Of a stretch of DNA of 32,572 nt, positions 373 to 11,673 are shown one piece after another. The position numbers and the translations under genes are program-made. Where the stretch lies: contig JAGAAT010000101.1 of NCBI GenBank assembly GCA_017615095.1, positions 1 to 32,572 of the forward strand, in the 5' to 3' direction. Under the pieces are notes generated by a model. That model did no database searches. It saw only the letters and a list, made by a program, of their open reading frames with translations, and was not told where the DNA came from. Numbering within the stretch: position 1 is the stretch's first letter; every line of letters starts with the position of its first letter. Source of the DNA: a bacterium (GTDB lineage: Bacteria > UBP6 > UBA1177).

Positions 373-2292
373 ATGGAAGGTAAGCAGCTTACGACAAAAT
401 TTCCCTCTCTCTTCGGCAAATATTACCTGCTGGAGCTGGTAAACCTCGGTGGTATGGCCGAGATCTTCAAGGCAAAGATGTTCGGTGTCGAGGGCTTCGA
501 AAAGATCGTCGCGATCAAACGGATCCTGCCCGAAGTCGCAGTTGACGAAGAGTTCATCAAAATGTTTATCGATGAGGCCAAGATCGCCGTACGTCTGCAG
601 CACCCGAACATCGTCCAGATCTATGAGCTCGGAAACATCGACGGCTCCTACTTTATCGCGATGGAACTTGTCAACGGCAAGGATCTGAAGGTCATCCGCC
701 AGCGCCTGAAGAGAGTCGAGCTCCTGATGCCGGTCGAGCAGAGCGCATACATCATCTCTCAGGTCTGCGACGGTCTCGATTACGCACACCGCAAGACTGA
801 CGAGCACATGAATTCGCTCAACATCGTCCACCGTGATGTTTCGCCTCAAAATATCATCGTCTCCTACGAGGGAAACGTTAAGCTCATCGACTTCGGTATC
901 GCGAAGGCGCAGAGCAAATCCACAAAAACCCAGGCCGGGATGGTCAAGGGGAAGTTCAGCTATATGTCTCCCGAACAGGTCAACGGCAAGGTCCTGGACA
1001 GACGCAGCGATATCTTCTCGCTCGGCGTAGTCTTTTTCGAAATGCTCACCGGGAAGCGCCTTTTCCTCGGCAAGAGCGATGTCGAGACGCTTGAAAAGGT
1101 CCGTGCGGCCGAAGTCGTTCCGCCGAGTATGTTCAACAGCAGCGTTCCGCCGGAGATCGACAGGATCGTCATGAAGGCTCTGGCCCGCGAGCGCGAGGAC
1201 CGCTACCAGTGGGCGAGCGAATTTTCCGATGACCTGAAGAAGTTCAGCTACTCTTCGGACAAGCGTTTCTCGCGTCAGGACATGATGAATTTCATGAGCG
1301 AGTTCTTTGCCGACGAGCTTGAGGAGGAGACCGCAAAGCTCGAAAGCTATAAAAAGATCCCGAAGCCGCCCGAGGTCAAGACTCCTGCACCGGAATCCGC
1401 TCCGGCAGAAAGCAACACCTCTTCGATTTACGTCAACCGCAAGGCCAGCGATGCAAAGAAGGTCATGGCTATCCTGATCTCCGCGCTGGTCCTGATCGCT
1501 ATAACGATCACCGCTCTCGTTCTCGTGAAAAACCAGAAGGACGACACGGCGGCTCTGATAATCAACAGCGAGCCGCAGAAGACCATCGTCGTTCTGGACA
1601 AGGGGACAATGTACCAGAAACGCTGCGAGACTCCGTGCGTCATGGAGGGGCTTCTTCCCGGACAGCGCGAAATCGAGTTCTCACGCGAAGGCTACATCCC
1701 GCTGCGCGAAACGGTCATTCTCGGCAAGGGCGACAGGCTCGAAAAGTTCGTCAAGCTCTACAAGGTCGGCGAGCAGAAGACGATGATCACCGTCAAGTCC
1801 GATCCTGATAACGCGGTGCTTTACGTCAACGATAAAAAGGCGGCGTCGAACACTCCGACGGTCGTCAGCGATATCCCGGTCGGGATGGATGTCGTGGTCA
1901 GAGTCGAAAAACACGGCTACTATCCTTACGAGGAGAACATCGGAAAGGTCCCTGCGAACAGCAACAAGGAGCTGGAGATCATTCTTAAACCGATGAAAAA
2001 CGCTCCGGCGCCCCGCGAAAAGGATGTCAGGAAGGGCTCTTCAAAGTCTTCTGCGCAGGATAAGGCGCCTGTCGATTCATCTGAAACCGCATATATCACG
2101 ATCCAGGCGAATCCTTGGGCAAATGTATATCTCGACGGCAAGCTCATCGGCTCGACACCGATTTCAAAGTTCGCTCTGCCGGCAGGTTCGCACAAGATCC
2201 AGTTCAAGAATCCGAAATCGAAAATAGATAAGACTTTCCCCGTCGAACTGAAACCCGGCGAACATCACCGGATGGTTCAGAATTTCTACTGA
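373..2292 (+). CDS. Membrane Hanks-type Ser/Thr protein kinase with extracytoplasmic PEGA domains
   Basis: GGMAEIF, VAIK, HRDVSPQN, DFG and YMSPEQ motifs; TM segment (VMAILISALVLIAITITALVLV); PEGA-like repeats (INSEP, VKSDP, NPWANVYLDG..TP). Start placed at ATG 373. Confidence 0.93.
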   Translation: MEGKQLTTKFPSLFGKYYLLELVNLGGMAEIFKAKMFGVEGFEKIVAIKRILPEVAVDEEFIKMFIDEAKIAVRLQHPNIVQIYELGNIDGSYFIAMELVNGKDLKVIRQRLKRVELLMPVEQSAYIISQVCDGLDYAHRKTDEHMNSLNIVHRDVSPQNIIVSYEGNVKLIDFGIAKAQSKSTKTQAGMVKGKFSYMSPEQVNGKVLDRRSDIFSLGVVFFEMLTGKRLFLGKSDVETLEKVRAAEVVPPSMFNSSVPPEIDRIVMKALAREREDRYQWASEFSDDLKKFSYSSDKRFSRQDMMNFMSEFFADELEEETAKLESYKKIPKPPEVKTPAPESAPAESNTSSIYVNRKASDAKKVMAILISALVLIAITITALVLVKNQKDDTAALIINSEPQKTIVVLDKGTMYQKRCETPCVMEGLLPGQREIEFSREGYIPLRETVILGKGDRLEKFVKLYKVGEQKTMITVKSDPDNAVLYVNDKKAASNTPTVVSDIPVGMDVVVRVEKHGYYPYEENIGKVPANSNKELEIILKPMKNAPAPREKDVRKGSSKSSAQDKAPVDSSETAYITIQANPWANVYLDGKLIGSTPISKFALPAGSHKIQFKNPKSKIDKTFPVELKPGEHHRMVQNFY

Positions 2293-2410
2293 TTTTAAGC
2301 TATTGCTTTTTCCCCGTTTGAAGTACAATTACCTGTAATTTTTTTTTAAGGCGCACTGCGTTTTGAAAAAATTGCGGTCACAATTACTGACTTTTCTGAT
2401 GGAGGTTCTC

Positions 2411-3781
2411 ATGAAAAGAAACATTTTTAAGCTGATGGCACTTGCATTTGTCTTTTTTCTGATGGTCAGCTGCGGCGGCTCTTCGAACGGCGACAATACG
2501 GACACAGGCGATTCCGGTGACACAACGGCTGATACGGGCGATACGACCGAGCCTGCGGATACCGGCGACACCGATGAGGGCAAGTGGGAAGCGAAGTACA
2601 AAAAGGCTGACGGACACGCTGATAAAGTTTCAAAGGATGTTGTCAAGGCGAACAACGATCTCGGAATGAAGCTCTTCAGCGCTCTTGCATCCGAAGAACC
2701 TGGCAAAAATATGATGATTTCACCGCTTTCGATCTCGATCGCTATGGCGATGGTCACAAACGGCGCATCCGGCGAAAACCTTGACGAAATGAAAAACGTC
2801 CTCGGCTTCGGCGATATGGATTTTTCCGAAATAAACGCTCAATTCGCCGATCTTGTCCAGAGTCTGGTCGAAGCTGACAAAGATCTGGTCCTTTCGATCG
2901 CGGATTCCGTATGGATGGATGACGAACTGGAACCGGATGTAAAGCAGGATTTCATTGATGTTCTCACGGAATTTTATGACGCGGCGTTTTTCACCGAAGA
3001 TTTCCAGGATGAGGCGACTGTCGGCAAGATAAATTCGTGGGTCTCCGAAAAAACTAACGGAAAAATCGAGAAAGTCATCGAAAAAATCGGTCCGCAGGCA
3101 GTCATGTATCTCATCAACGCGATCTATTTCAAGGCTGCGTGGACGACCTCTTTCGACAAAGAGAGCACTTATGAAGGCGCTTTCATCCTTTCCGACGGAA
3201 CGGAAGGCAAGGCAGACTACATGGCATTTGCTCCCGATCAGGAGGTCCCCGAGTTTAAAAATTATTCGACGGACTGGAGCGATGAAAACGGTTATTCAGT
3301 TGTCAGAATCCCCTACGGGCGTGATGTCTTTGCGTTTTACGGCATAGTTCCGAATCCTGGCAACAAAACAAATATAGACGAATTCATTAAGAAAATCGCT
3401 GAAAACGGTATTGATTCCTATTTTTCGCAGCTCGAAAAGGGCGGATTCCATGTCCAGCTCCCGAAGTTCAAGTTCGCTTACGACAAATCGCTTGTCGATG
3501 TCTTCAAGAGTTTGGGAATGGAAAAGGCTTTTGCTGAAGGAGGTCTTACGAATATCGCCGATGAACCGCACTCTCTGTTCATTTCAGATATTTTCCACAA
3601 GACATTTGTCGAAGTGAACGAAGAGGGTACCGAAGCGGCGGCGGTGACAGTTGTCGAAGTCGGTGAAAAAGCCGAGCCTTCAGGATTTTTTGCTAACCGT
3701 CCGTTCGTATTCGTGATCCGCGACGACAGAACGGGATCGGTCCTTTTCGTCGGAAAAGTAGAAAATCCGAAAGCTGAATAG
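2411..3781 (+). CDS. Serpin lipoprotein 1 (predicted P1-P1' Lys-Ala)
   Basis: SD GGAGG, lipobox MVSC, acidic DTGD tether, NMMISPLSI, NAIYFKAAW, LPKF, hinge EEGTEAAA, NRPFVFVI. Confidence 0.95.
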   Translation: MKRNIFKLMALAFVFFLMVSCGGSSNGDNTDTGDSGDTTADTGDTTEPADTGDTDEGKWEAKYKKADGHADKVSKDVVKANNDLGMKLFSALASEEPGKNMMISPLSISIAMAMVTNGASGENLDEMKNVLGFGDMDFSEINAQFADLVQSLVEADKDLVLSIADSVWMDDELEPDVKQDFIDVLTEFYDAAFFTEDFQDEATVGKINSWVSEKTNGKIEKVIEKIGPQAVMYLINAIYFKAAWTTSFDKESTYEGAFILSDGTEGKADYMAFAPDQEVPEFKNYSTDWSDENGYSVVRIPYGRDVFAFYGIVPNPGNKTNIDEFIKKIAENGIDSYFSQLEKGGFHVQLPKFKFAYDKSLVDVFKSLGMEKAFAEGGLTNIADEPHSLFISDIFHKTFVEVNEEGTEAAAVTVVEVGEKAEPSGFFANRPFVFVIRDDRTGSVLFVGKVENPKAE

Positions 3782-3813
3782 GTGCTTCTGCAAACCTTCT
3801 AACGGAGATCAAA

Positions 3814-5334
3814 ATGAAAAAATCTATGATCCTTTTCACGGTTTTTACACTCTTTTTCCTCGTTTCGTGCGGCGGCGGCAGTAATGAAAACGGCGGCGAT
3901 ACTGCACCGGACGGAGACACAACTGACACAGGCGATTCCGGTGACACAACGGCTGATACCGGCGATACTGCACCGGACGGCGATACCGGAGAGACGGAAA
4001 CGGATGCCGATGCAACTGACACCGGTGATATCGGACCGGATGCGGATGAGGGCGATACCGAAGATCCGGCGTTGATACAGGCTTATTCAGTCGCCGATGC
4101 ACACGCAGAGGCTGTTTCAGCCGAGATCGTCAAGGCAAATACGAGGCTAGGGCTCAACATTTTTGAAAAGCTCGCGGTAGGAAAACACGAAAACATTATG
4201 ATTTCACCTCTTTCGATTTCGATCGCTATGGTGATGGCGGCGAACGGCACCGAAAACGAGTCTCTCGCCGAGATGAAGGAGGTCCTCGGGTACGGTGAGA
4301 TGGAGCTTCCGGCGGTGAACGAACAGTTCAGGGAGCTTATCGCAAGCCTTGTTTCTGCCGATAAGGATCTCGTTCTTGAGATCGCAAACTCGATCTGGCT
4401 CGACGATGCTATTGCGGATGAAATCAAAGAGGAGTTCATCGCTGTTCTTGAAGATAGTTACGACGCTGAGCTTTTCGAGGCAGATTTCGGCGATGATGCT
4501 ACAGTTGAGCTCATCAACTCCTGGGTTGCGGAAAAGACGCACGGCAAGATCGACAAAATTATTGACGGGATCGGTCCGGAGAGTGTCATGCACCTTATCA
4601 ACGCGGTCTACTTCAAGGCTACGTGGAGTGTAGCGTTCGACAAGGATGCGACTTTTAACAGAGAGTTCATTCTATCAGACGGAACCAAAACGGATGCCGA
4701 TTATATGGGCTTTTTTTCTAACGAGAAAAACATGGGCATAACATACGGGAACTATGTAATTTCGGGTCAGAATGTCGCCAGTGTCAGGATCCCATACGGC
4801 AGAGACGCGTTTGCCTTTTATGCGTATGTAGCCAATCCAGATTATGGCACTCCTGAGGACGAAGTCATCGGCGTTGACGAGATCATCGGCAAAATTGTTG
4901 AAAAGGGGCTGGAATGGTATCTCTCCTTCGCAAAACACATAGATTACACTATTCGTCTTCCCAAGTTCAAATTCGAGTATAATAAGTCTCTTAAGAATGT
5001 TTTTGAATCTCTCGGGCTTGAGAAACTTTTCGGAAGCGGAGGCATGTCGGCAGCTGCTCCTTCACTTTATGTGTCGGGAATCACTCATAAAACCTATATC
5101 GACGTGAACGAAGAGGGCACCGAAGCTGCGGCTGTCACGGATATAGACGTCGGTGATACCGGAGACGAAGGTCCCAACAGGTTTCAGGGTTTCTACGGCA
5201 AAAGACCATTCTTCTTCTTTATCCGCGACGAGAGGAACGGCACGATCCTTTTCATGGGCAAGGTCGAAAGACCCGAATACGAAGAGTGGTTCCTGAATTT
5301 CCGGTTTCGATCCAAGGTCAGAAATTTCTATTGA
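3814..5334 (+). CDS. Serpin lipoprotein 2 (predicted P1-P1' Thr-Gly), with a C-terminal read-through extension
   Basis: Lipobox LVSC, long acidic tether, ISPLSI, NAVYFKATW, EEGTEAAA, RPFFFFI. Confidence 0.95.
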   Translation: MKKSMILFTVFTLFFLVSCGGGSNENGGDTAPDGDTTDTGDSGDTTADTGDTAPDGDTGETETDADATDTGDIGPDADEGDTEDPALIQAYSVADAHAEAVSAEIVKANTRLGLNIFEKLAVGKHENIMISPLSISIAMVMAANGTENESLAEMKEVLGYGEMELPAVNEQFRELIASLVSADKDLVLEIANSIWLDDAIADEIKEEFIAVLEDSYDAELFEADFGDDATVELINSWVAEKTHGKIDKIIDGIGPESVMHLINAVYFKATWSVAFDKDATFNREFILSDGTKTDADYMGFFSNEKNMGITYGNYVISGQNVASVRIPYGRDAFAFYAYVANPDYGTPEDEVIGVDEIIGKIVEKGLEWYLSFAKHIDYTIRLPKFKFEYNKSLKNVFESLGLEKLFGSGGMSAAAPSLYVSGITHKTYIDVNEEGTEAAAVTDIDVGDTGDEGPNRFQGFYGKRPFFFFIRDERNGTILFMGKVERPEYEEWFLNFRFRSKVRNFY

Positions 5335-5520
5335 TTTTTCCTTTACTATTTTTTTTTTTTTTCGTTAAAGTACGATCATTGCTGTTTTTTCCGGGCATAT
5401 CGTGTCCGAATAAATCAGCGGTTATTTACTGACTTTTCTGATGGAGGTTGTTATGAAAAGAGACATTTTTAAGCTTCTGGCTGCTGCACTTGTCCTCTTT
5501 CTGATGGCTGCCTGCGGAGG
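5316..5520 (+). repeat. Diverged direct repeat of 2274-2480 (kinase 3' tail, intergenic region and serpin-1 leader)
   Basis: ggttcagaatttctactgatttt (2274) vs ggtcagaaatttctattgatttt (5316); exact 24-mer ttactgacttttctgatggaggtt at 2384-2407 and 5426-5449; MKRNIFKL vs MKRDIFKL. Confidence 0.85.
5349..5362. repeat. T14 homopolymer upstream of serpin 3
   Basis: Counted directly; lies between TTTACT (5342-5347) and TACGAT (5371-5376). Confidence 0.9.
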
Positions 5521-6910
5521 CGGTGACAAAAATGACGAGGATGCCCAGCCGGACGGAGACACAACGGACAGCGGTACTGTCGAGCCGACCGACACGGGCG
5601 ATACTGCGCCTGACGGTGATACCGGCGATACCGATCCTGACGGTGACATCGGAGACACGGAGACGGACGATGATAACGGTGACACCGAAGATCCTGCGGT
5701 GATGCAGGCTTATTCTGTTGCCGATGCACACGCAGAGGCTGTTTCAGCCGAGATCGTTGAGGCTAACACGAGGCTCGGGCTCAACATTTTTGAAAAACTC
5801 GCGGTCGGGAAACACGAAAACATTATGATCTCTCCGCTTTCGATTTCGATCGCTATGGCGATGGCGGCGAACGGCACCGAAAACGAATCTCTTGCCGAGA
5901 TGAAGGAGGTGCTCGGCTACGGCGAGATGGATCTTCCGACGGTGAACGAGCAGTTCAGAGAGCTTATCGCGAGCCTTGTTTCTGCGGATAAGGATCTCGT
6001 TCTTGAGGTCGCAAACTCGATCTGGGTCGATGAGATATTTTCCGAGGAGATCAGGGATGAGTTCATCACTGTTCTTGAGGAGAGTTACGACGCAGAACTT
6101 TTCAAGGCTGATTTCGGCGATGACGAGACGGTAGAACTCATCAACTCCTGGGTTGCGGAAAAGACGCACGACAAGATCGACAAGATCATCGATTCTATCG
6201 GTCCGCAGACTGTTATGCACCTCATCAACGCGGTTTACTTCAAGGCTGCGTGGAGTATCGCTTTCGACAAGGAGGCGACCTTTACCGCTAAGTTCATTCT
6301 TGCGGACGGAACATTAACGGATGCCGAATACATGGGCTTCAAGGAGTACAGCAGCCTGAACGGAGTTAAGTACGGCGACTATGTCATCTCGGATCAGGAT
6401 GTCGCCGGTGTCAGGATCCCATACGGCAGAGACGCATTCGCCTTTTATGCTTATGTCGCAAATCCATCTTTTGAGGCAGCGATCGACGGAGTTCTGACGG
6501 TTGACGAGATCATCAGCAATTTCGTAAAAAAGGGGAACTTCACCGGCTATATGCCCTCTGCTGCGCCGAATTATTACAAGATCCATCTCCCCAAGTTCAA
6601 ATTTGAGTATAAAGAGTCTCTCGTGGAGATTTTTAAATCTCTCGGGGTCGAGAAACTCTTTGAAGACGGCGGAATGTCGGCTGCTCATTCGGCTCTATAT
6701 GTTTCTGGAATCACTCACAAAACCTATATCGACGTGAACGAAGAGGGAACAGAGGCGTCGGCTGTCACGGATATAGAAGCCGATGTCGGCGGTCCTGAGA
6801 ATTTCCCCGGCTTCTACGGCAGAAGACCATTCTTCTTCTTCATCCGCGACGAGAGGAACGGCACGATACTCTTCATGGGCAAGGTCGAAAAGCCCGAATA
6901 CGAGGAGTAA
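5453..6910 (+). CDS. Serpin lipoprotein 3 (predicted P1-P1' Gly-Gly)
   Basis: SD GGAGG, lipobox MAAC, acidic tether, hinge EEGTEASA; body closely similar to serpin 2. Confidence 0.95.
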   Translation: MKRDIFKLLAAALVLFLMAACGGGDKNDEDAQPDGDTTDSGTVEPTDTGDTAPDGDTGDTDPDGDIGDTETDDDNGDTEDPAVMQAYSVADAHAEAVSAEIVEANTRLGLNIFEKLAVGKHENIMISPLSISIAMAMAANGTENESLAEMKEVLGYGEMDLPTVNEQFRELIASLVSADKDLVLEVANSIWVDEIFSEEIRDEFITVLEESYDAELFKADFGDDETVELINSWVAEKTHDKIDKIIDSIGPQTVMHLINAVYFKAAWSIAFDKEATFTAKFILADGTLTDAEYMGFKEYSSLNGVKYGDYVISDQDVAGVRIPYGRDAFAFYAYVANPSFEAAIDGVLTVDEIISNFVKKGNFTGYMPSAAPNYYKIHLPKFKFEYKESLVEIFKSLGVEKLFEDGGMSAAHSALYVSGITHKTYIDVNEEGTEASAVTDIEADVGGPENFPGFYGRRPFFFFIRDERNGTILFMGKVEKPEYEE

Positions 6911-6922
6911 TTTCCCAAATCA

Positions 6923-9058
6923 TTAATTTTCAAGCTTCAAACCGATCCACGGGGTGATCCCCGGAGTCCCGTACTCGACCGAATAGGCGTAACTGTCGTT
7001 ATCCAGCATGTTGTCGATTTTTGCGAAGATCGTGACGAATTTGTGCACTTTCCAGGAGATCGCAAAGTTCAGCAGGACGAACTGGTCGACTTCGACGATG
7101 TACGGTGTTTTCGGATAGTTGTAGACCTCGTCGTTACGGACTCCGACATAGTCAAGACCAAGGAAAATATTTAATATTTTCTTGTAATTATAGTTTAGCT
7201 CCGCGCTGAATGTGTGCTTCGGACGGCGAAGCGGCGTGGTTTTGCTCTTGTACTTCCTGCCCTGATACTCCACGACTTTGTATTCGTTCAGCTTGAAGAT
7301 GAAGGTGTAGGCGGATTTGAAGCTCAGCCCCCAGAATGGTTTGGTCTGGAGCGAAAATTCGAGGCCGTGGTTTTCGATTCTGTAGTGATTTGAATACTTT
7401 CCGCTTTTGTCCAGGTCGATGTTGTTTATCTTGAGTTCATAAAAATAGCCGGCTTCAAGAAGGATTTTCCGCTTTACCAGATACTGCTGGATGACGCCGT
7501 CGAAGCCGTACGCGATCTCGTAAAGCAGCTCGTTGTAGAGGTCGGAATAGCGGCTGAAGCGCTGAAAAAGCGTCGGAGCTTTTGAGGCTCTCGCGAACCT
7601 TGCCTTGAACCCGAGTTCTATCGGCGTTTCATAGGCGATACCGGCCGAAAAGAGCGGTTCCGCCAGTTTTTTTGTCTTTGAAGGCAGCAGCTCGTCGGTG
7701 AGGCTGTCGAGGAGCGAGACCTGATAAAAGTTGGTCTGAAGCCTGAAACCGGCGTTTATCTCCAGTTTTTTCACTGGTTTGAAAATGTTCATCAGGTATA
7801 GCCCGAGTGCGAAGTCGGGGTTCGGCTTGAAGCTAAGGTCATACTTCCTGCCGCTTGAATAGTCTTCGTAATCGGCGATCCCGGCGGCAAGCTCGAACTT
7901 TATTCCCGCAAGGATCTCGTACCATTCGAGCGGCTTTAACGAGTTGTCCCAATCAAGGTTGAGAGTCAGCGCCTTGTAGAGGCTGTTCATGTCGCCGGTC
8001 ACCTTGCCCGCGTCTGCGGGATCGTCGTCGTAAAGCGCGTTGAGGTAGACCGACGCATTGAACTTGAGGTTCCAGAGCTTGTCGAAAAGGTCGGAATCTA
8101 TGCCGGTTTTGGCGGTAAGTGTCCTCGAACGCAGGATGCGGTTCGGGTCGTCGAGCCCGAGCCCGGGACCGTCGTCGATTTCGTATTTGCCGATGTCGGT
8201 GCGCAAAATCAGGTCCCACGTCGTCGCATCGCTGATGTCGACACCGCCCCGGAAGTAGATCTTTCCCTTGATCACGCCGTCGTTGTCGGGCGTTTTCGTG
8301 AAGAGGTTCTCCTTGACGCCGTGGTAGGAATCGGCTTCGGAAATGCCTTCGGTGTAGAAAAACGATCCTCCGCCGGAGTAGAAAAAACGCTCTTTCGAGC
8401 CGCGCACCGAGGCGTTGACGTTGAAGGTGTCCGGGACGAGCCGGTCGCTGCTCATGTCGAGAATGCCCGTCGAAATCGAGCTCACGAATTTAGGCTTTCC
8501 CGCCCCCTTTTTCGTGTGGATATCGATGACTCCGGCAATCGCGCCGCTACCGAAAAGAACGGGCTGAGGTCCCTTGAGAAGCTCTATCTTCGCAATGTCT
8601 TCTGGACTCTGGGCAAGATCCGCTGCGCCGTTCGGACTCACCGGGTTACGCATCGGAACACCGTCGACCAGCACGAGCACGTCCGCGCTCCGGAAGCCGC
8701 GCAGAAAGACATACTGCGACTGTCCGGTGTTGCCGCTGCCGTCGACGTAGACTCCCGCCATCTCCTTGATAGCGTCGCCCGTCGTGGTCGAAATTTTGTT
8801 TTCGATCTCGTTCGCGCTGATGGAAGCCTTTGCGGATGCGCCGTCCTGACTTTTGTTTTTTTTGCCGCGGACAGTGATCTCGTTTGCCGGATCTTTAGCC
8901 GGTTTCTTTTTTGTTTCAGCCTGCGTCTCAGTTTCGGTTTTCGGCTCTTCCTGCTGATTGGAAGTTGCCTCTTCCGAAACAGCCTGCTCTTCGGCGAACA
9001 TTGGGAAAAACAATAGTAAAATAAGATAGATGAGCGATTTTTTTAAGAGCCTCAGCAT
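6923..9058 (-). CDS. btuB: TonB-dependent outer-membrane receptor, probable cobalamin transporter (BtuB-like)
   Basis: Signal peptide, plug motifs (LRGFRSADVLVLVDGVP; IELLKGPQPVLFGSGAIAGVI), barrel C-terminus (IDNMLDNDSY...PG). ATG 9058 follows SD GAGGAGG. Cobalamin riboswitch upstream supports the substrate call. Confidence 0.8.
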   Translation of the reverse strand: MLRLLKKSLIYLILLLFFPMFAEEQAVSEEATSNQQEEPKTETETQAETKKKPAKDPANEITVRGKKNKSQDGASAKASISANEIENKISTTTGDAIKEMAGVYVDGSGNTGQSQYVFLRGFRSADVLVLVDGVPMRNPVSPNGAADLAQSPEDIAKIELLKGPQPVLFGSGAIAGVIDIHTKKGAGKPKFVSSISTGILDMSSDRLVPDTFNVNASVRGSKERFFYSGGGSFFYTEGISEADSYHGVKENLFTKTPDNDGVIKGKIYFRGGVDISDATTWDLILRTDIGKYEIDDGPGLGLDDPNRILRSRTLTAKTGIDSDLFDKLWNLKFNASVYLNALYDDDPADAGKVTGDMNSLYKALTLNLDWDNSLKPLEWYEILAGIKFELAAGIADYEDYSSGRKYDLSFKPNPDFALGLYLMNIFKPVKKLEINAGFRLQTNFYQVSLLDSLTDELLPSKTKKLAEPLFSAGIAYETPIELGFKARFARASKAPTLFQRFSRYSDLYNELLYEIAYGFDGVIQQYLVKRKILLEAGYFYELKINNIDLDKSGKYSNHYRIENHGLEFSLQTKPFWGLSFKSAYTFIFKLNEYKVVEYQGRKYKSKTTPLRRPKHTFSAELNYNYKKILNIFLGLDYVGVRNDEVYNYPKTPYIVEVDQFVLLNFAISWKVHKFVTIFAKIDNMLDNDSYAYSVEYGTPGITPWIGLKLEN

Positions 9059-9060
9059 TG

Positions 9061-9173
9061 GCAAATATCCCTCCTCGGGGCTGTTTGCTGCGTGCGATGT
9101 ATCCGGCTTGCGTACAGCTTTACGGTTGCGGGACAGCATCGGAATCCCACCGATTTCCATCGTCTTCACGCAA
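9061..9173 (-). ncRNA. Cobalamin riboswitch, short class II-type, with SD-containing hairpin
   Basis: Minus strand: TGCGTG..CGATGGAAATCGGTGGGATTCCGATGCTGTCCCGCAACCGTAA..AAGCCGGATACATCGCACGCA. Conserved core and B12 box; closing helices TGCGTG/CACGCA and CGATG/CATCG; downstream GCAAA..CCC-CGAGGA-GGG..TTTGC hairpin. Confidence 0.88.
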
Positions 9174-9179
9174 TGCCGC

Positions 9180-9207
9180 AAGTTAAGTTTTAGAACGGCA
9201 ATGTCAA
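9180..9207 (-). promoter_or_regulatory. Putative promoter of the riboswitch-btuB transcript (TTGACA-N16-TAACTT)
   Basis: Perfect -35; the implied start site falls just 5' of the riboswitch. Confidence 0.6.
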
Positions 9208-9289: not shown

Positions 9290-10597
9290 TTGAAGGCTGA
9301 GTTATTCATAGGTCTCAGGTATCTTTGGAACACGAGACGGACGCGCTTTCTGAGCGTGATCACGCTGATTTCCGTCCTCGGGATAGCTATCGGTGTCGCG
9401 GCGATAATTTCTGTTCAGTCGATCATGGACGGGCTTCAGAACAAGATGAAGGCGGCGGTCCTCGGCGCGAAGACTCACATCAGGATCGAGCATGAGGCGG
9501 GTACAGTCTCTGACTATGAAAACGCGATCGCAAAAATATCAGACAACACGGAGTTTTACGGAGTCACGCCGATAATTTCACGCGATGTCATCGTCTCCTT
9601 CGGCAGCGAGCTGACCGGTGCGGTCGTCAACGGGATCGACATCGCAAGCGCCGGAAGCGCCCTGAAGCTCCCGGAACAGATCACGAAAGGGTCGCTGAAG
9701 TGCGTCGAAAATCCTGCGGATTGTCCTGAAATCGTTGAAAAACGGGAGGCGCTCGACAACTTTTTGAGAAAGCCCGGAGCGGGGGAGAAACGTTACGGCG
9801 ATATGCCTGGGATAGCGATCGGGAGCGAAATGGCGAAGTATTACGCCCTCGACATCGGCGATAAGATCAAAATAATCTCACCGACAGGCGGAAAGCTGAA
9901 CTCGCTCGGTCTGCCGACGCCGCTTGTGAAGACCTTCATCGTGTCGGCGGTCTTCTTCACCACCTATTACGAGTACGATTTCAGCTACGCATACATCACA
10001 CTTGACGCTGCGAAGGAGTTTTTCTCGACCGGAGGTGCGGTCGACCACATCGGGGTCAGGCTGAAGGACGTCTACGCGATCGAACCAGCTGAAAACTTTA
10101 TCAGATCGAAGCTCGGCGACGGCTTCAAAACCAAAAACTGGCGGGACATGAACAAGCCGCTTTTCTCTGCACTCGAGATGGAAAAGGTCCTCTGGTTCCT
10201 GATCCTCGGATTCATCGCACTCGTCGCCTCATTCAACGTCATCTCCGCACTCGTGATGCTCGTTATCGGCAAAAAGAGCGAGATCGCCGTCCTGCGGGCG
10301 ATGGGCTTCACCTCGCGCTCCGTTATGAAAATTTTTATGTTCGACGGACTGACGATCGGGATGATCGGAACGACTCTCGGCACGATCCTTGGAGTTGCCG
10401 CCTCCTGCCTGCTGAACGGTCTGCCGCTCGGAGACGCACAGGATGTTTACTACATCGAGACACTGCCGGTTGACCTCGCTCCGTCGACGCTCGTCATCGC
10501 GATCGCCGGATCACTTCTGCTTTCACTTGCCGCTACGATATATCCAGGTCTCCGCGCCGCCAATCTCAAACCTGTTGATGCACTGAGACACGAGTGA
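9290..10597 (+). CDS. lolE: Lipoprotein-releasing ABC transporter permease LolC/E family
   Basis: ELFIGLRYL...ISVLGIAIGVAAII, MacB-like periplasmic domain, WRDMNKPLFSALEMEK, EIAVLRAMG, YYIETLPV, PVDALRHE; TTG start. Confidence 0.88.
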   Translation: MKAELFIGLRYLWNTRRTRFLSVITLISVLGIAIGVAAIISVQSIMDGLQNKMKAAVLGAKTHIRIEHEAGTVSDYENAIAKISDNTEFYGVTPIISRDVIVSFGSELTGAVVNGIDIASAGSALKLPEQITKGSLKCVENPADCPEIVEKREALDNFLRKPGAGEKRYGDMPGIAIGSEMAKYYALDIGDKIKIISPTGGKLNSLGLPTPLVKTFIVSAVFFTTYYEYDFSYAYITLDAAKEFFSTGGAVDHIGVRLKDVYAIEPAENFIRSKLGDGFKTKNWRDMNKPLFSALEMEKVLWFLILGFIALVASFNVISALVMLVIGKKSEIAVLRAMGFTSRSVMKIFMFDGLTIGMIGTTLGTILGVAASCLLNGLPLGDAQDVYYIETLPVDLAPSTLVIAIAGSLLLSLAATIYPGLRAANLKPVDALRHE

Positions 10598-10664: not shown

Positions 10665-10964
10665 ATGCCTTCGACGCAGAAGATTTTGGAAGAAATGGGG
10701 GAGCAGATAAAACTTGCCCGCCTCAGAAGAAAACTCAGCGCGGAACTTGTTGCGGAACGCGCCGGAGTGAGCCGTGTCACGCTTTGGAACATCGAAAAAG
10801 GCTCATCTTCAGTCGCAATGGGTGCATACGCTGCGGTTCTCCATGCAATCGGCGGAATGGACAGGGATCATCTTCTTGTTGCAAAAGATGACGAACTGGG
10901 ACGCAAACTTCAGGATCTAGGGCTTCTGCCTAAAAAGCGCGCCCCGAAAAGAGGAGACGACTAA
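10665..10964 (+). CDS. XRE-family HTH protein, HipB-like antitoxin
   Basis: GEQIKLARLRRKLSAELVAERAGVSRVTLWNIEKG; TAATG-coupled to a hipA-like gene. Confidence 0.88.
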   Translation: MPSTQKILEEMGEQIKLARLRRKLSAELVAERAGVSRVTLWNIEKGSSSVAMGAYAAVLHAIGGMDRDHLLVAKDDELGRKLQDLGLLPKKRAPKRGDD

Positions 10965-11673
10965 TGGCGCAGGAAGAAAAGAAAATTTATGTTTATGAAA
11001 ACTGGTCTTCCGAAATTCCACGGGAACTCGGTATTCTTTATGTCAACAATGTTCGCGTAACGGAGATCTTTTCGTTTGAATACAACGAAGAATATCTGAG
11101 AAATCCTACTTCATGCAGCATTGATCCTGAATTTCCAAACAGGGCAGCACATTTCTTGTCAAAAGATTCGATAGATCCGGCAGTCGCCGCATACATTTTT
11201 CTTCAGCGATGACGATGCTCGGAAAAGTTGACGGAGCTTCAGCAAAAGACGGCACGTCATATCTTGAAATAGCCGATTTTATTATAAAAAACGGTGCAGA
11301 TCCCAAAAACGACCTTGCTGAACTATGGAAAAGGATCGTTTTCAATATGACCGTTTCAAATACTGATGACCATCTTCGCAACCACGGTTTTCTTCTTTCT
11401 GCCAAAGGCTGGCGGCTTTCTCCCGCCTACGATATGAACCCGAATGCCATGGGTGACGGACTCGCATTGAATGTGAATGAAAACGATAATTCGATTGATA
11501 TCGATCTCGCGATTGATACCTGCCGGTTTTTTCATCTGGAAAAAGATGAAGCGGTACAAATTGCTGCTGACATGTCTCTTGCTGTCCGCAAAAATTGGGA
11601 GAAAACTGCCATGAAATACGGTGCAAGCCGTGCCATGATCGAACTTATGCGCCCTGCATTCGTCATGTCGTAA
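10964..11673 (+). pseudogene. hipA: HipA-family toxin kinase, internally deleted and frameshifted
   Basis: HipA N-terminal domain (FSFEYNEEYL..SIDPE) joins out of frame at about 11131 to SKQGSTFLVKRFDR..RIHFSSAMTMLG..NTDDHLRNHGF..LSPAYDMNP; no Gly-rich ATP loop region. Confidence 0.85.

Follow-up and report, generated by a model that had tools for sequence, protein, structure and literature searches.

The window analysed here, the 32,572-nucleotide contig JAGAAT010000101.1 of an uncultured ruminant-gut bacterium of the 'UBP6' lineage, carries a trio of same-strand open reading frames (ORFs; + strand), S1 (2411-3781, 456 residues), S2 (3814-5334, 506 residues) and S3 (5453-6910, 485 residues), lodged between a PEGA-domain Ser/Thr kinase (352-2292) and a convergent TonB-dependent receptor (6923-9181). 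All three encode serpins, and our analyses indicate that they are paralogues within a lineage-wide family of predicted Sec/SPII lipoprotein serpins; we put the probability that S1-S3 are both envelope-anchored and inhibitory at roughly 70%. Because they differ from one another in the bait loop and in two other surface segments, it is most likely that they would trap different enzymes. S1 represents class A, the core serpin of the lineage, here with a Lys at P1 that is peculiar to this copy, and S2 and S3 belong to a fast-evolved, acidic-loop clade (classes C and D). A first-pass annotation, made from the sequence alone, had pictured a diversified set of membrane-tethered protease traps, and of that picture the serpins themselves, their predicted lipoprotein signals, inhibitory hinges and differing loops held up on closer analysis, while a display stalk particular to the serpins and a background of single-copy serpins did not.

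The Pfam search that the first-pass annotation had recommended showed that the three proteins each match PF00079 over the whole 370-position profile (positions 1/2-370), with E values of 3.5e-100, 7.2e-85 and 5.1e-85 and scores of 336.3, 285.8 and 286.4 bits for S1, S2 and S3, against a cut-off of 27 bits, which bears out the claim of three consecutive serpins. A scan of the three against NCBIfam returned no family. S1 is 54% identical to S2 and 52% identical to S3, and the identity between S2 and S3 ranges, segment by segment, from ~96% down to ~41%. Among PDB sequences S1 matched 201 distinct chains, led by those of conserpin (E 8.4e-58), miropin (5ncs, E 7.2e-56) and tengpin (2vh4, E 1.5e-52). 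An AlphaFold2 model of the S2 core (residues 88-491), built with 82 diverse sequences, reached a predicted local distance difference test score (pLDDT) of 89.5 and a predicted template-modelling score (pTM) of 0.90, and its top Foldseek matches were all serpins (E 1e-35 to 1e-30, query-normalised TM-score 0.71-0.81), the best being latent antithrombin chains, latent tengpin (2pef), latent conserpin (5cdz) and cleaved vaspin (E 1e-35 to 1e-34, TM-score 0.75-0.81). A model of full-length S2 built from 67 close relatives, a shallow alignment, was set aside at a pLDDT of 48.8. In the core model, residues P15-P6 form a strand beside s5A, and the stretch from P6 to P7' is of low confidence; the model confirms the serpin fold of the S2 core and predicts that sheet A can accommodate the hinge.

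The hinges, EEGTEAAA in S1 and S2 and EEGTEASA in S3 (EEGTEAAAV and EEGTEASAV in extended form), were found as first annotated, and each has the residues of an inhibitory hinge, i.e., Glu at P17, Gly at P15, Thr or Ser at P14 and small residues at P12-P9, for which the accessible part of PMC8233489 gives the consensus ExGTEAAAA. Across the 67 sequences of our alignment A3, the hinge positions N, E, G, E, A and A do not vary. With 17 residues counted from the hinge Glu, the loops read VVEVGEK↓A in S1, DIDVGDT↓G in S2 and DIEADVG↓G in S3 (the arrow marks the counted bond), so that the counted P1 residues are Lys420 in S1 (hinge to P1, 3620-3670), Thr449 in S2 (codon 5158-5160, within a loop that runs at 5110-5205 from P17 to the Arg before PFF and has G-D-T-G at P3-P1') and Gly446 in S3 (codon 6788-6790, loop 6740-6826). 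The loop strings and these residues were as first annotated, and the Lys of S1 gained independent backing, since the S1 loop aligns ungapped in HMMER to the antitrypsin loop in conserpin 6ee5 and the Lys falls on the P1 Met. For S2 and S3 the scissile bond is better read as a counting convention than as a finding, because the distance from P1 to the Pro of RPF is 16 and 13 residues, as opposed to 11 in S1, i.e., prime sides longer by 5 and 2. Nor did we take Thr and Gly as the established P1 residues of these two proteins, since miropin, as described in the accessible part of 10.1101/2025.09.05.674453, uses several bonds in its loop. That the three bait loops differ was borne out, and each loop class is kept across species.

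Each protein begins with a predicted lipoprotein signal peptide: 21 residues ending in MVSC in S1 (2411-2473; three Lys/Arg among the first 8 residues), 19 ending in LVSC in S2 (3814-3870; two Lys/Arg near the start) and 21 ending in MAAC in S3 (5453-5515; three Lys/Arg near the start). By pattern, all three have the charged n-region, the h-region and the Cys-terminal lipobox that the first-pass annotation had ascribed to them, S2 in the strict classical form and S1 and S3, with Met at -3, in a loose PROSITE-like form only. Between the Cys and the serpin body lies a tether of 39 residues in S1 (2474-2590), 69 in S2 (3871-4077) and 63 in S3 (5516-5704), or 35, 64 and 58 by an alternative boundary, each 67% Asp, Thr and Gly and 31-38% acidic with 0-1 basic residues; the first estimate had been 30-65 residues. 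The acidic residues directly after the Cys resemble what we take to be the surface-export signals of Bacteroidota lipoproteins. The genome encodes LspA (PF01252, E 1.9e-20, 74.4 bits) and two matches to Lgt (PF01790, E 1.0e-61 and 1.6e-53, 207.7 and 180.9 bits), one of them adjoining LspA on contig C124. The TonB-dependent receptor beside the array is a sign indicating an outer membrane, and this receptor, LspA, Lgt and an FtsX/MacB-type permease encoded nearby together point to a diderm cell with lipoprotein maturation.

The tether itself, described at first as a stalk for display of the serpins, turned out to have a much wider distribution. Lipobox-like starts were called on 218 of the genome's open frames of at least 100 residues, and 21 of the 218 have at least 60% Asp/Thr/Gly in the 40 residues after the Cys, with many more acidic and rich in Asp/Glu/Pro/Ser/Thr. 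Because many other, unrelated predicted lipoproteins have the same linker behind the lipobox Cys, the tether is best regarded as a general habit of this organism's predicted lipoproteins, and it gives no evidence of special serpin display. Individual unrelated lipoproteins with an Asp/Thr/Gly or Asp/Glu/Pro/Ser linker after the Cys start at C9:3152 (+), C11:8061 (-) and C65:6159 (+), and another lies at L006:366-1121 (-) in a relative's locus; a tether habit of this breadth raises glycosylation, or the spanning of a surface layer, as questions.

Put together, these features suggest how the proteins would work. After export, the lipobox Cys would be lipidated by the successive action of Lgt and LspA, and the serpin would be held on the envelope by its long, acidic and presumably disordered tether, as many lipoproteins of this organism would be. 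A protease cutting the exposed loop of this suicide-substrate trap would release the hinge (Gly at P15, Thr at P14, Ala/Ser/Val at P12-P9) to insert into sheet A, and the enzyme would stay covalently bound.

The window is contig C27 of a metagenome-assembled genome (MAG) of 1.69 Mb in 202 contigs, estimated at 72.6% complete. Its closest named loci come from ruminant-gut MAGs labelled 'bacterium UBP6' (UBA1209, UBA1196, UBA1177), 'uncultured Spirochaetales' (RUG) or simply 'bacterium' (yak, goat, buffalo, deer), and the sequencing runs that contain the stretch are gut, bovine-gut or sheep-gut metagenomes, plus one without an organism label. The genome has six serpin matches, namely S1-S3, one more on contig C2, another on C5 and a fragment where contig C13 ends, and every complete serpin among them has a lipobox and an acidic tether. 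At least one serpin match was present in 37 of 41 genomes (this one and 40 relatives), including 14/14 of the genus and 22/22 of the family; members of the genus have 1-6 matches apiece, and tandem pairs are common. To judge from this distribution, serpins are core, multi-copy genes in the lineage, and the generalisation from which the first-pass annotation had started, that bacterial serpins are sporadic and usually single-copy, fails here.

Serpin ORFs were gathered from the loci retrieved (80 hits, of which 57 were unique), and they fall into at least eight classes of reactive-centre loop that recur across species of this genus of the ruminant-gut 'UBP6' lineage. Their relationships were drawn from a quick IQ-TREE analysis of 46 complete serpin cores, with support from the SH-like approximate likelihood ratio test (SH-aLRT) only, from which fragments, X-masked rows and one row lacking a recognisable hinge were left out. 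Class A, with the loop [VS]VEVG[ED][NSK]AMPSGF and including S1, forms supported subgroups (SH-aLRT 98 for that of S1) and not one resolved clade; class B (VEY[SG][DE].A[MI], SH-aLRT 100) often adjoins class A in relatives. S2 belongs to class C (DIDVGDTGDEGPNRFQGFYGK) and S3 to class D (DI[EGA][AV]DVGGP[EA]NFPGFYGR), itself a clade with an SH-aLRT of 100, and the two classes form a clade with support of 100 on a stem of length 0.66. Classes E (EVA[AV]DTGDTGGDEYIISAR, the copy on contig C2), F (A[ED]S[GA]DTG[GE]DYTPP) and G (EEGAESGAYAY..., with an odd hinge) group with an SH-aLRT of 99, and class H (DEKGVEASAVT..., SH-aLRT 100) is very divergent, with a stem of 2.13. The hinges of class H (L091, L092, L093, L097) and class G (L100, L035) are non-standard, reading DEKGVEASAVT in the former and EEGAESGAYAY or EKGTESAGYTY in the latter, and some class H loops contain Cys (VECLGE); the inhibitory status of both classes is doubtful. 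Ten of the 12 unique class A sequences have Asn at the counted P1, one has Ser and one Lys, the Lys being that of S1 in the window, which also has Glu instead of Met at P2'. In class C the string DIDVGDTGD is identical in 7 of 8 members (S2, P0001-P0004, P0006 and P0007; not P0005), with overall identities of 78-97%. Two old loop types, VEVGETSMP and VEIVDESMP, were seen in other genera of the family and order, again carried on acidic tethers.

The position of the array beside the kinase is also a recurrent one. At eight relatives' loci (L014, L025, L029, L031, L032, L095, L099 and L105, some of them the same genome fetched twice) tblastn placed a serpin directly 3' of a homologous kinase, 96% identical in UBA1209 and 59-70% elsewhere. 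The class of the kinase-adjacent serpin varies, class F in other species and A/C/D in the window. Since class F follows the kinase (59-70% identical) in at least four other species, where class A sits elsewhere beside class B, the A+C+D trio is specific to this sub-lineage.

With neighbouring genes as alike as S2 and S3, it was reasonable to ask whether the triple array might be a misassembly of paralogues from mixed strains, an idea to which the fragmentation of the MAG into 202 contigs, the 90-96% protein identity of S2 and S3 in alignment columns 90-180 and the existence of a close relative, UBA1209, with only two genes, one of them a chimera, all lend something. However, run X2, which belongs to another study than X1, the run that best represents the stretch, has Logan contigs that span 2983-3954 (S1 into S2) and 5229-5749 (S2 into S3), contigs of X1 itself cover 5293-5749 with 0 differences, and 4 other contigs encode full-length proteins of the S2 type that begin with the signal peptide of S2 (P0001, 97% identical to S2 over 97% of the query). 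Because contigs from the second study bridge both gene junctions, the array is to be taken as real and not as an artefact of assembly, and misassembly appears very improbable.

The array has nonetheless been pieced together from modules, and several of the seams are still legible in the DNA. The S1 leader, ribosome-binding site and signal-peptide module (2384-2479, + strand) recurs before S3 at 5426-5521 with 83% identity, and the S1 tether DNA (2484-2544) recurs in S2 at 3908-3968 with 90% identity. S2 ends in a C-terminal extension of 15 codons (5287-5334, + strand), which opens with TGG at the point where its orthologues P0001-P0003 and P0007 end (...PEYEE) and runs into a ~20-base fossil of the kinase 3' end, reading ..RNFY stop as compared with ..QNFY stop in the kinase (DNA alignment of 2225-2530 with 5262-5575); the last ~20 bases of the kinase gene and the spacer behind them thus recur 3' of S2. 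The fossil shows where an ancient unit of duplication had its boundary. S2 and S3 are 90-96% identical in their first third (alignment columns 90-180), 74% in the loop window and 41-55% in two other segments. Since the kinase-end fossil, spacer, leader and tether DNA are all repeated within the array, one unit of duplication reached from the end of the kinase gene to the end of a serpin gene; once it had been duplicated, the copies exchanged segments of signal, tether and body, and the array is thus a mosaic of duplication and recombination.

The UBA1209 locus provides a second view of this process. The first-pass annotation had called for copy number to be compared at this locus in related MAGs, and in UBA1209 the gene order is the same, i.e., kinase (96%), serpin, serpin, TonB-dependent receptor (88%) and permease (89%), but with two serpins instead of three. 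The first of the two (L025:5980-7392, also fetched as L095) is a clean chimera, S1-like for ~135 residues and S2-like thereafter, with the switch in a conserved EMK-VLG stretch. The simplest reading is that it came about by unequal crossing-over in a three-gene ancestor, the alternative being a collapsed assembly of that MAG.

Several observations weigh against the view that S1-S3 are anchored, working inhibitors. The lipobox calls came from a self-written pattern (a regular expression after the PROSITE rule for lipoproteins), and in S1 and S3 position -3 is Met. The loop-inserted model of S2 resembles latent and cleaved forms, which is compatible with insertion and is no evidence of a metastable native state; a strand-inserted loop may also be a bias of AlphaFold2 modelling. 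The counted P1 residues Thr (S2), Gly (S3) and Asn (10 of 12 in class A) are atypical for targets of the trypsin, chymotrypsin or elastase type, which means that the count is out of register or that unusual proteases are the targets. In the window there is no protease gene beside the array, the nearest peptidase, an S41, being ~11 kb away, and across 15 genomes of the genus, which are not independent of one another, the counts of serpins and of S8 subtilases show no visible relation. As for expression, contigs from RNA libraries match S2 at 4999-5174 (0 differences) and the start of S3 at 5398-5669 (1 difference), a weak hint of transcription, given that RNA libraries can contain DNA; the two runs (X17 and X18) contain small shares only, as contigs, and gaps in their cover are uninformative. 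An X17 contig of 1135 bases on S1 was rejected as RNA evidence, its 91 differences assigning it to a relative.

If the proteins are inhibitors, they may be turned towards the periplasm or the surface of their own cell, where they would neutralise subtilisin-like proteases that the organism itself secretes, either on the way out or after diffusing back, as opposed to forming a shield against foreign enzymes. The 1.69 Mb MAG contains eight S8 (PF00082) matches in open frames of 476-862 residues (on contigs C3, C158, C79, C19, C58, C139, C141 and C124) and a single trypsin-fold (PF00089/PF13365) match, and all 41 genomes have S8 matches, 2-14 each. Lipoproteins of diderm cells face the periplasm by default. 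In genome G010 the gene just 3' of a class A serpin (C72:494-1615) encodes an S8 protease of ~490 residues (C72:2026-2907), and miropin, according to the accessible part of 10.1101/2025.09.05.674453, inhibits subtilisin. However, that adjacency was seen in one genome, and in G004 and G007 the counterpart S8 gene is 17-23 kb from the serpin; the missing protease neighbour in the window and the S8 and serpin counts that do not track each other, both mentioned above, also count against self-protection. The neighbourhood does not decide between own subtilases and foreign rumen proteases as candidate targets. The S8 count in itself bespeaks a protease-rich lifestyle for a small genome.

A different concern is that S2 and S3 may have lost inhibition and become binding or structural proteins of the surface, leaving S1 as the only working inhibitor. 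Their counted P1 residues of Thr and Gly, strongly acidic loops with prime sides of 16 and 13 residues versus 11, the long stem (0.66) of their clade and the lost stop codon of S2 are what such a history might leave behind. Yet the hinge is intact from P17 to P8, that of S2 being the same as in S1 and that of S3 having one Ala-to-Ser change, and non-inhibitory serpins usually have bulky or charged hinge residues. The invariant hinge columns of alignment A3 also speak against it, the conservation of the class C reactive-centre segment is not what would be expected of released constraint, and we consider loss of inhibition unlikely.

The composition of some of the loops led to a further proposal. 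G-D-T-G, the commonest tether word, stands at counted P3-P1' of S2 (VGDT↓GD), D-T-G stands at counted P3-P1 in class E (ADTG↓DTGGDE, contig C2) and class F (SGDTG↓GDY), and TGDT↓GN occupies the register of S2 in L016, a serpin from another genus that falls in a different clade. Word counts were made in a greedy, non-overlapping gene set of 1407 frames, 211 of them with a lipobox, the tether zone being defined as the 150 residues after the Cys: DTGD occurred 138 times in the tether zone (4.5 per 1000 residues) versus 98 times elsewhere (0.19 per 1000), a 23-fold enrichment, and GDTG at 2.0 per 1000 residues versus 0.12. Because GDTG is so scarce outside the tethers, its presence at reactive centres by chance is unlikely; these loops may be stalk-imitating baits, or tolerant loops that have picked up low-complexity sequence. 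Under the former explanation, the loops of classes C, E and F would copy the (G-D-T)n stalks of lipoproteins and trap foreign or own proteases that cut or shed such stalks, for which it can further be said that the hexamer DTGDTG is present in both the loop and the tether of the class E serpin, that the loop and tether of S2 have common codons GATACCGGAGA and that the class C loop looks like that of its sister class D with D-T-G-D-E inserted. Co-variation of loop and tether across other genera is mixed, however: in the L016 genome the serpin tethers are rich in Lys/Asp/Glu and not in DTG, and in genus g6 the tethers are pure (GDT)n, yet both serpins seen there have canonical loops only. In addition, the motif is absent from S1, S3 and classes A, B and D, low-complexity DNA could enter a tolerant loop without any function, and we know of no protease of G-D-T-G specificity, no search aimed at one having been made. 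We hold decoy baits of this kind to be quite improbable; if real, they would amount to a self-mimicking bait that guards the whole tethered surface proteome, or to a control on its programmed shedding.

S1 is preceded by the ribosome-binding site GGAGG at 2401-2405, five bases 5' of the ATG, and for this reason the start at 2411 is the good one, rather than that of a longer ORF with a TTG start from 2363. For S3, 5453 is most likely the start, rather than the ATG at 5441, which overlaps the ribosome-binding site; 5453 sits behind the same leader as S1. The gap between S1 and S2 is 32 bases and that between S2 and S3 is 118 bases (5335-5452, + strand), the latter with a T-run and homologous to the kinase-S1 spacer. 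A promoter and terminator scan of 2200-7100 gave 6 promoter-like and 7 terminator-like calls versus 4.4 and 6.2 expected from shuffles, i.e., no signal, with nothing useful between the array genes and no terminator-like hairpin called in the S2-S3 spacer. The upstream neighbour (+ strand) matches the Pfam families Pkinase (E 2.5e-41) and PEGA (E 2.8e-22), and the convergent downstream receptor (- strand) matches Plug (E 6.7e-23) and TonB_dep_Rec_b-barrel (E 3.7e-19). The permease at 9290-10597 (+ strand) matches FtsX (E 1.3e-18) and MacB_PCD (E 1.6e-14), the two domains given by Pfam, and is presumably a LolC/E-like component of lipoprotein release. Further along, 10665-11673 comprises a helix-turn-helix (HipB-like) gene followed by short ORFs at 10964-11212 and 11209-11673, with a HipA_C match only in the latter (profile positions 86-213 of 213), and looks like a split or truncated toxin kinase of the HipA type.

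That some bacterial serpins are anchored by lipid was already known, from miropin and from the 'membrane anchored' class among bacterial serpins named in the accessible part of PMC8233489. Miropin of Tannerella forsythia (5ncs, 5nct, 5ncu, 5ncw) is described in the part of 10.1101/2025.09.05.674453 available to us as a surface-exposed lipoprotein serpin of the outer membrane that uses several loop bonds and inhibits subtilisin, papain, trypsin, elastase and a gingipain. By sequence similarity (its match to 5ncs), S1 is in the same broad neighbourhood, and the inhibitory hinge and the protease-rich, host-associated habitat are shared as well. Unlike miropin, which that text treats as one multispecific inhibitor, the serpins of this lineage come as six or more paralogues per genome and eight or more loop classes per genus, their tethers are 39-69 residues long and rich in Asp/Thr/Gly, and several of their reactive centres are acidic and rich in Gly/Thr. 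The Group T serpins (Spence et al. 2021), i.e., the siropins of Eubacterium siraeum, the Bifidobacterium longum serpin and tengpin, have a canonical hinge and proposed targets among host or environmental proteases, according to the accessible parts of PMC8233489 and PMC5127057. Like them, S1-S3 are gut or anaerobe serpins with a canonical hinge, and tengpin is among the best matches of S1; the long acidic lipoprotein tethers and the family of eight classes set them apart from Group T as described in those parts.

Among the loci of other phyla that were scanned (L042-L090) there were 57 serpin ORFs, 27 with a lipobox-like start, and 10 loci with at least two serpins. These include three tandem lipobox-bearing serpins in a Mariniphaga MAG (L048:3249-7137) and four tandem serpins, one with a lipobox, in a Gemmatimonadota MAG (L052:5547-11250), in both cases with different loops and canonical hinges, which suggests that tandem arrays of serpins with different loops are not rare in bacteria. 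Animals, too, have such clusters (clades A and B), in which the scaffold and hinge were kept and the loop diverged amid duplication and gene conversion. As in these animal and bacterial clusters, the neighbouring paralogues of the window keep scaffold and hinge and differ in the loop; unlike in those clusters, two segments beyond the loop have fallen to 41-55% identity and signal and tether modules have been swapped between copies. Bacterial serpins are still called rare and enigmatic in the accessible parts of PMC8233489 and 10.64898/2026.10.08.756777, and a limited literature search found nothing in print on serpins of UBP6, which came up only in passing in catalogues of rumen MAGs; papers that joined the name to serpins dealt with Ubp6 of eukaryotes, which is unrelated. 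What is new here is the UBP6 lineage itself, the size and conservation of its serpin family, the acidic Gly/Thr/Asp reactive centres and a well-resolved mosaic history.

For the biology of the family, the finding means that in an uncultured lineage of the ruminant gut serpins are almost universal, with up to six copies, at least eight conserved loop classes and predicted lipid anchors, i.e., a natural panel for learning how loop sequence sets the specificity of a bacterial serpin. The acidic Gly/Thr/Asp reactive centres predict targets beyond the trypsin, chymotrypsin and elastase set, and the panel could help to identify the proteases that matter at cell surfaces in the rumen, a habitat that is rich in proteases and of interest to agriculture. 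Should it be true that some of the loops mimic lipoprotein stalks, this would be a new logic for the design of inhibitor baits, and even otherwise the locus is a clean example of how a paralogue is born through duplication and the exchange of modules.

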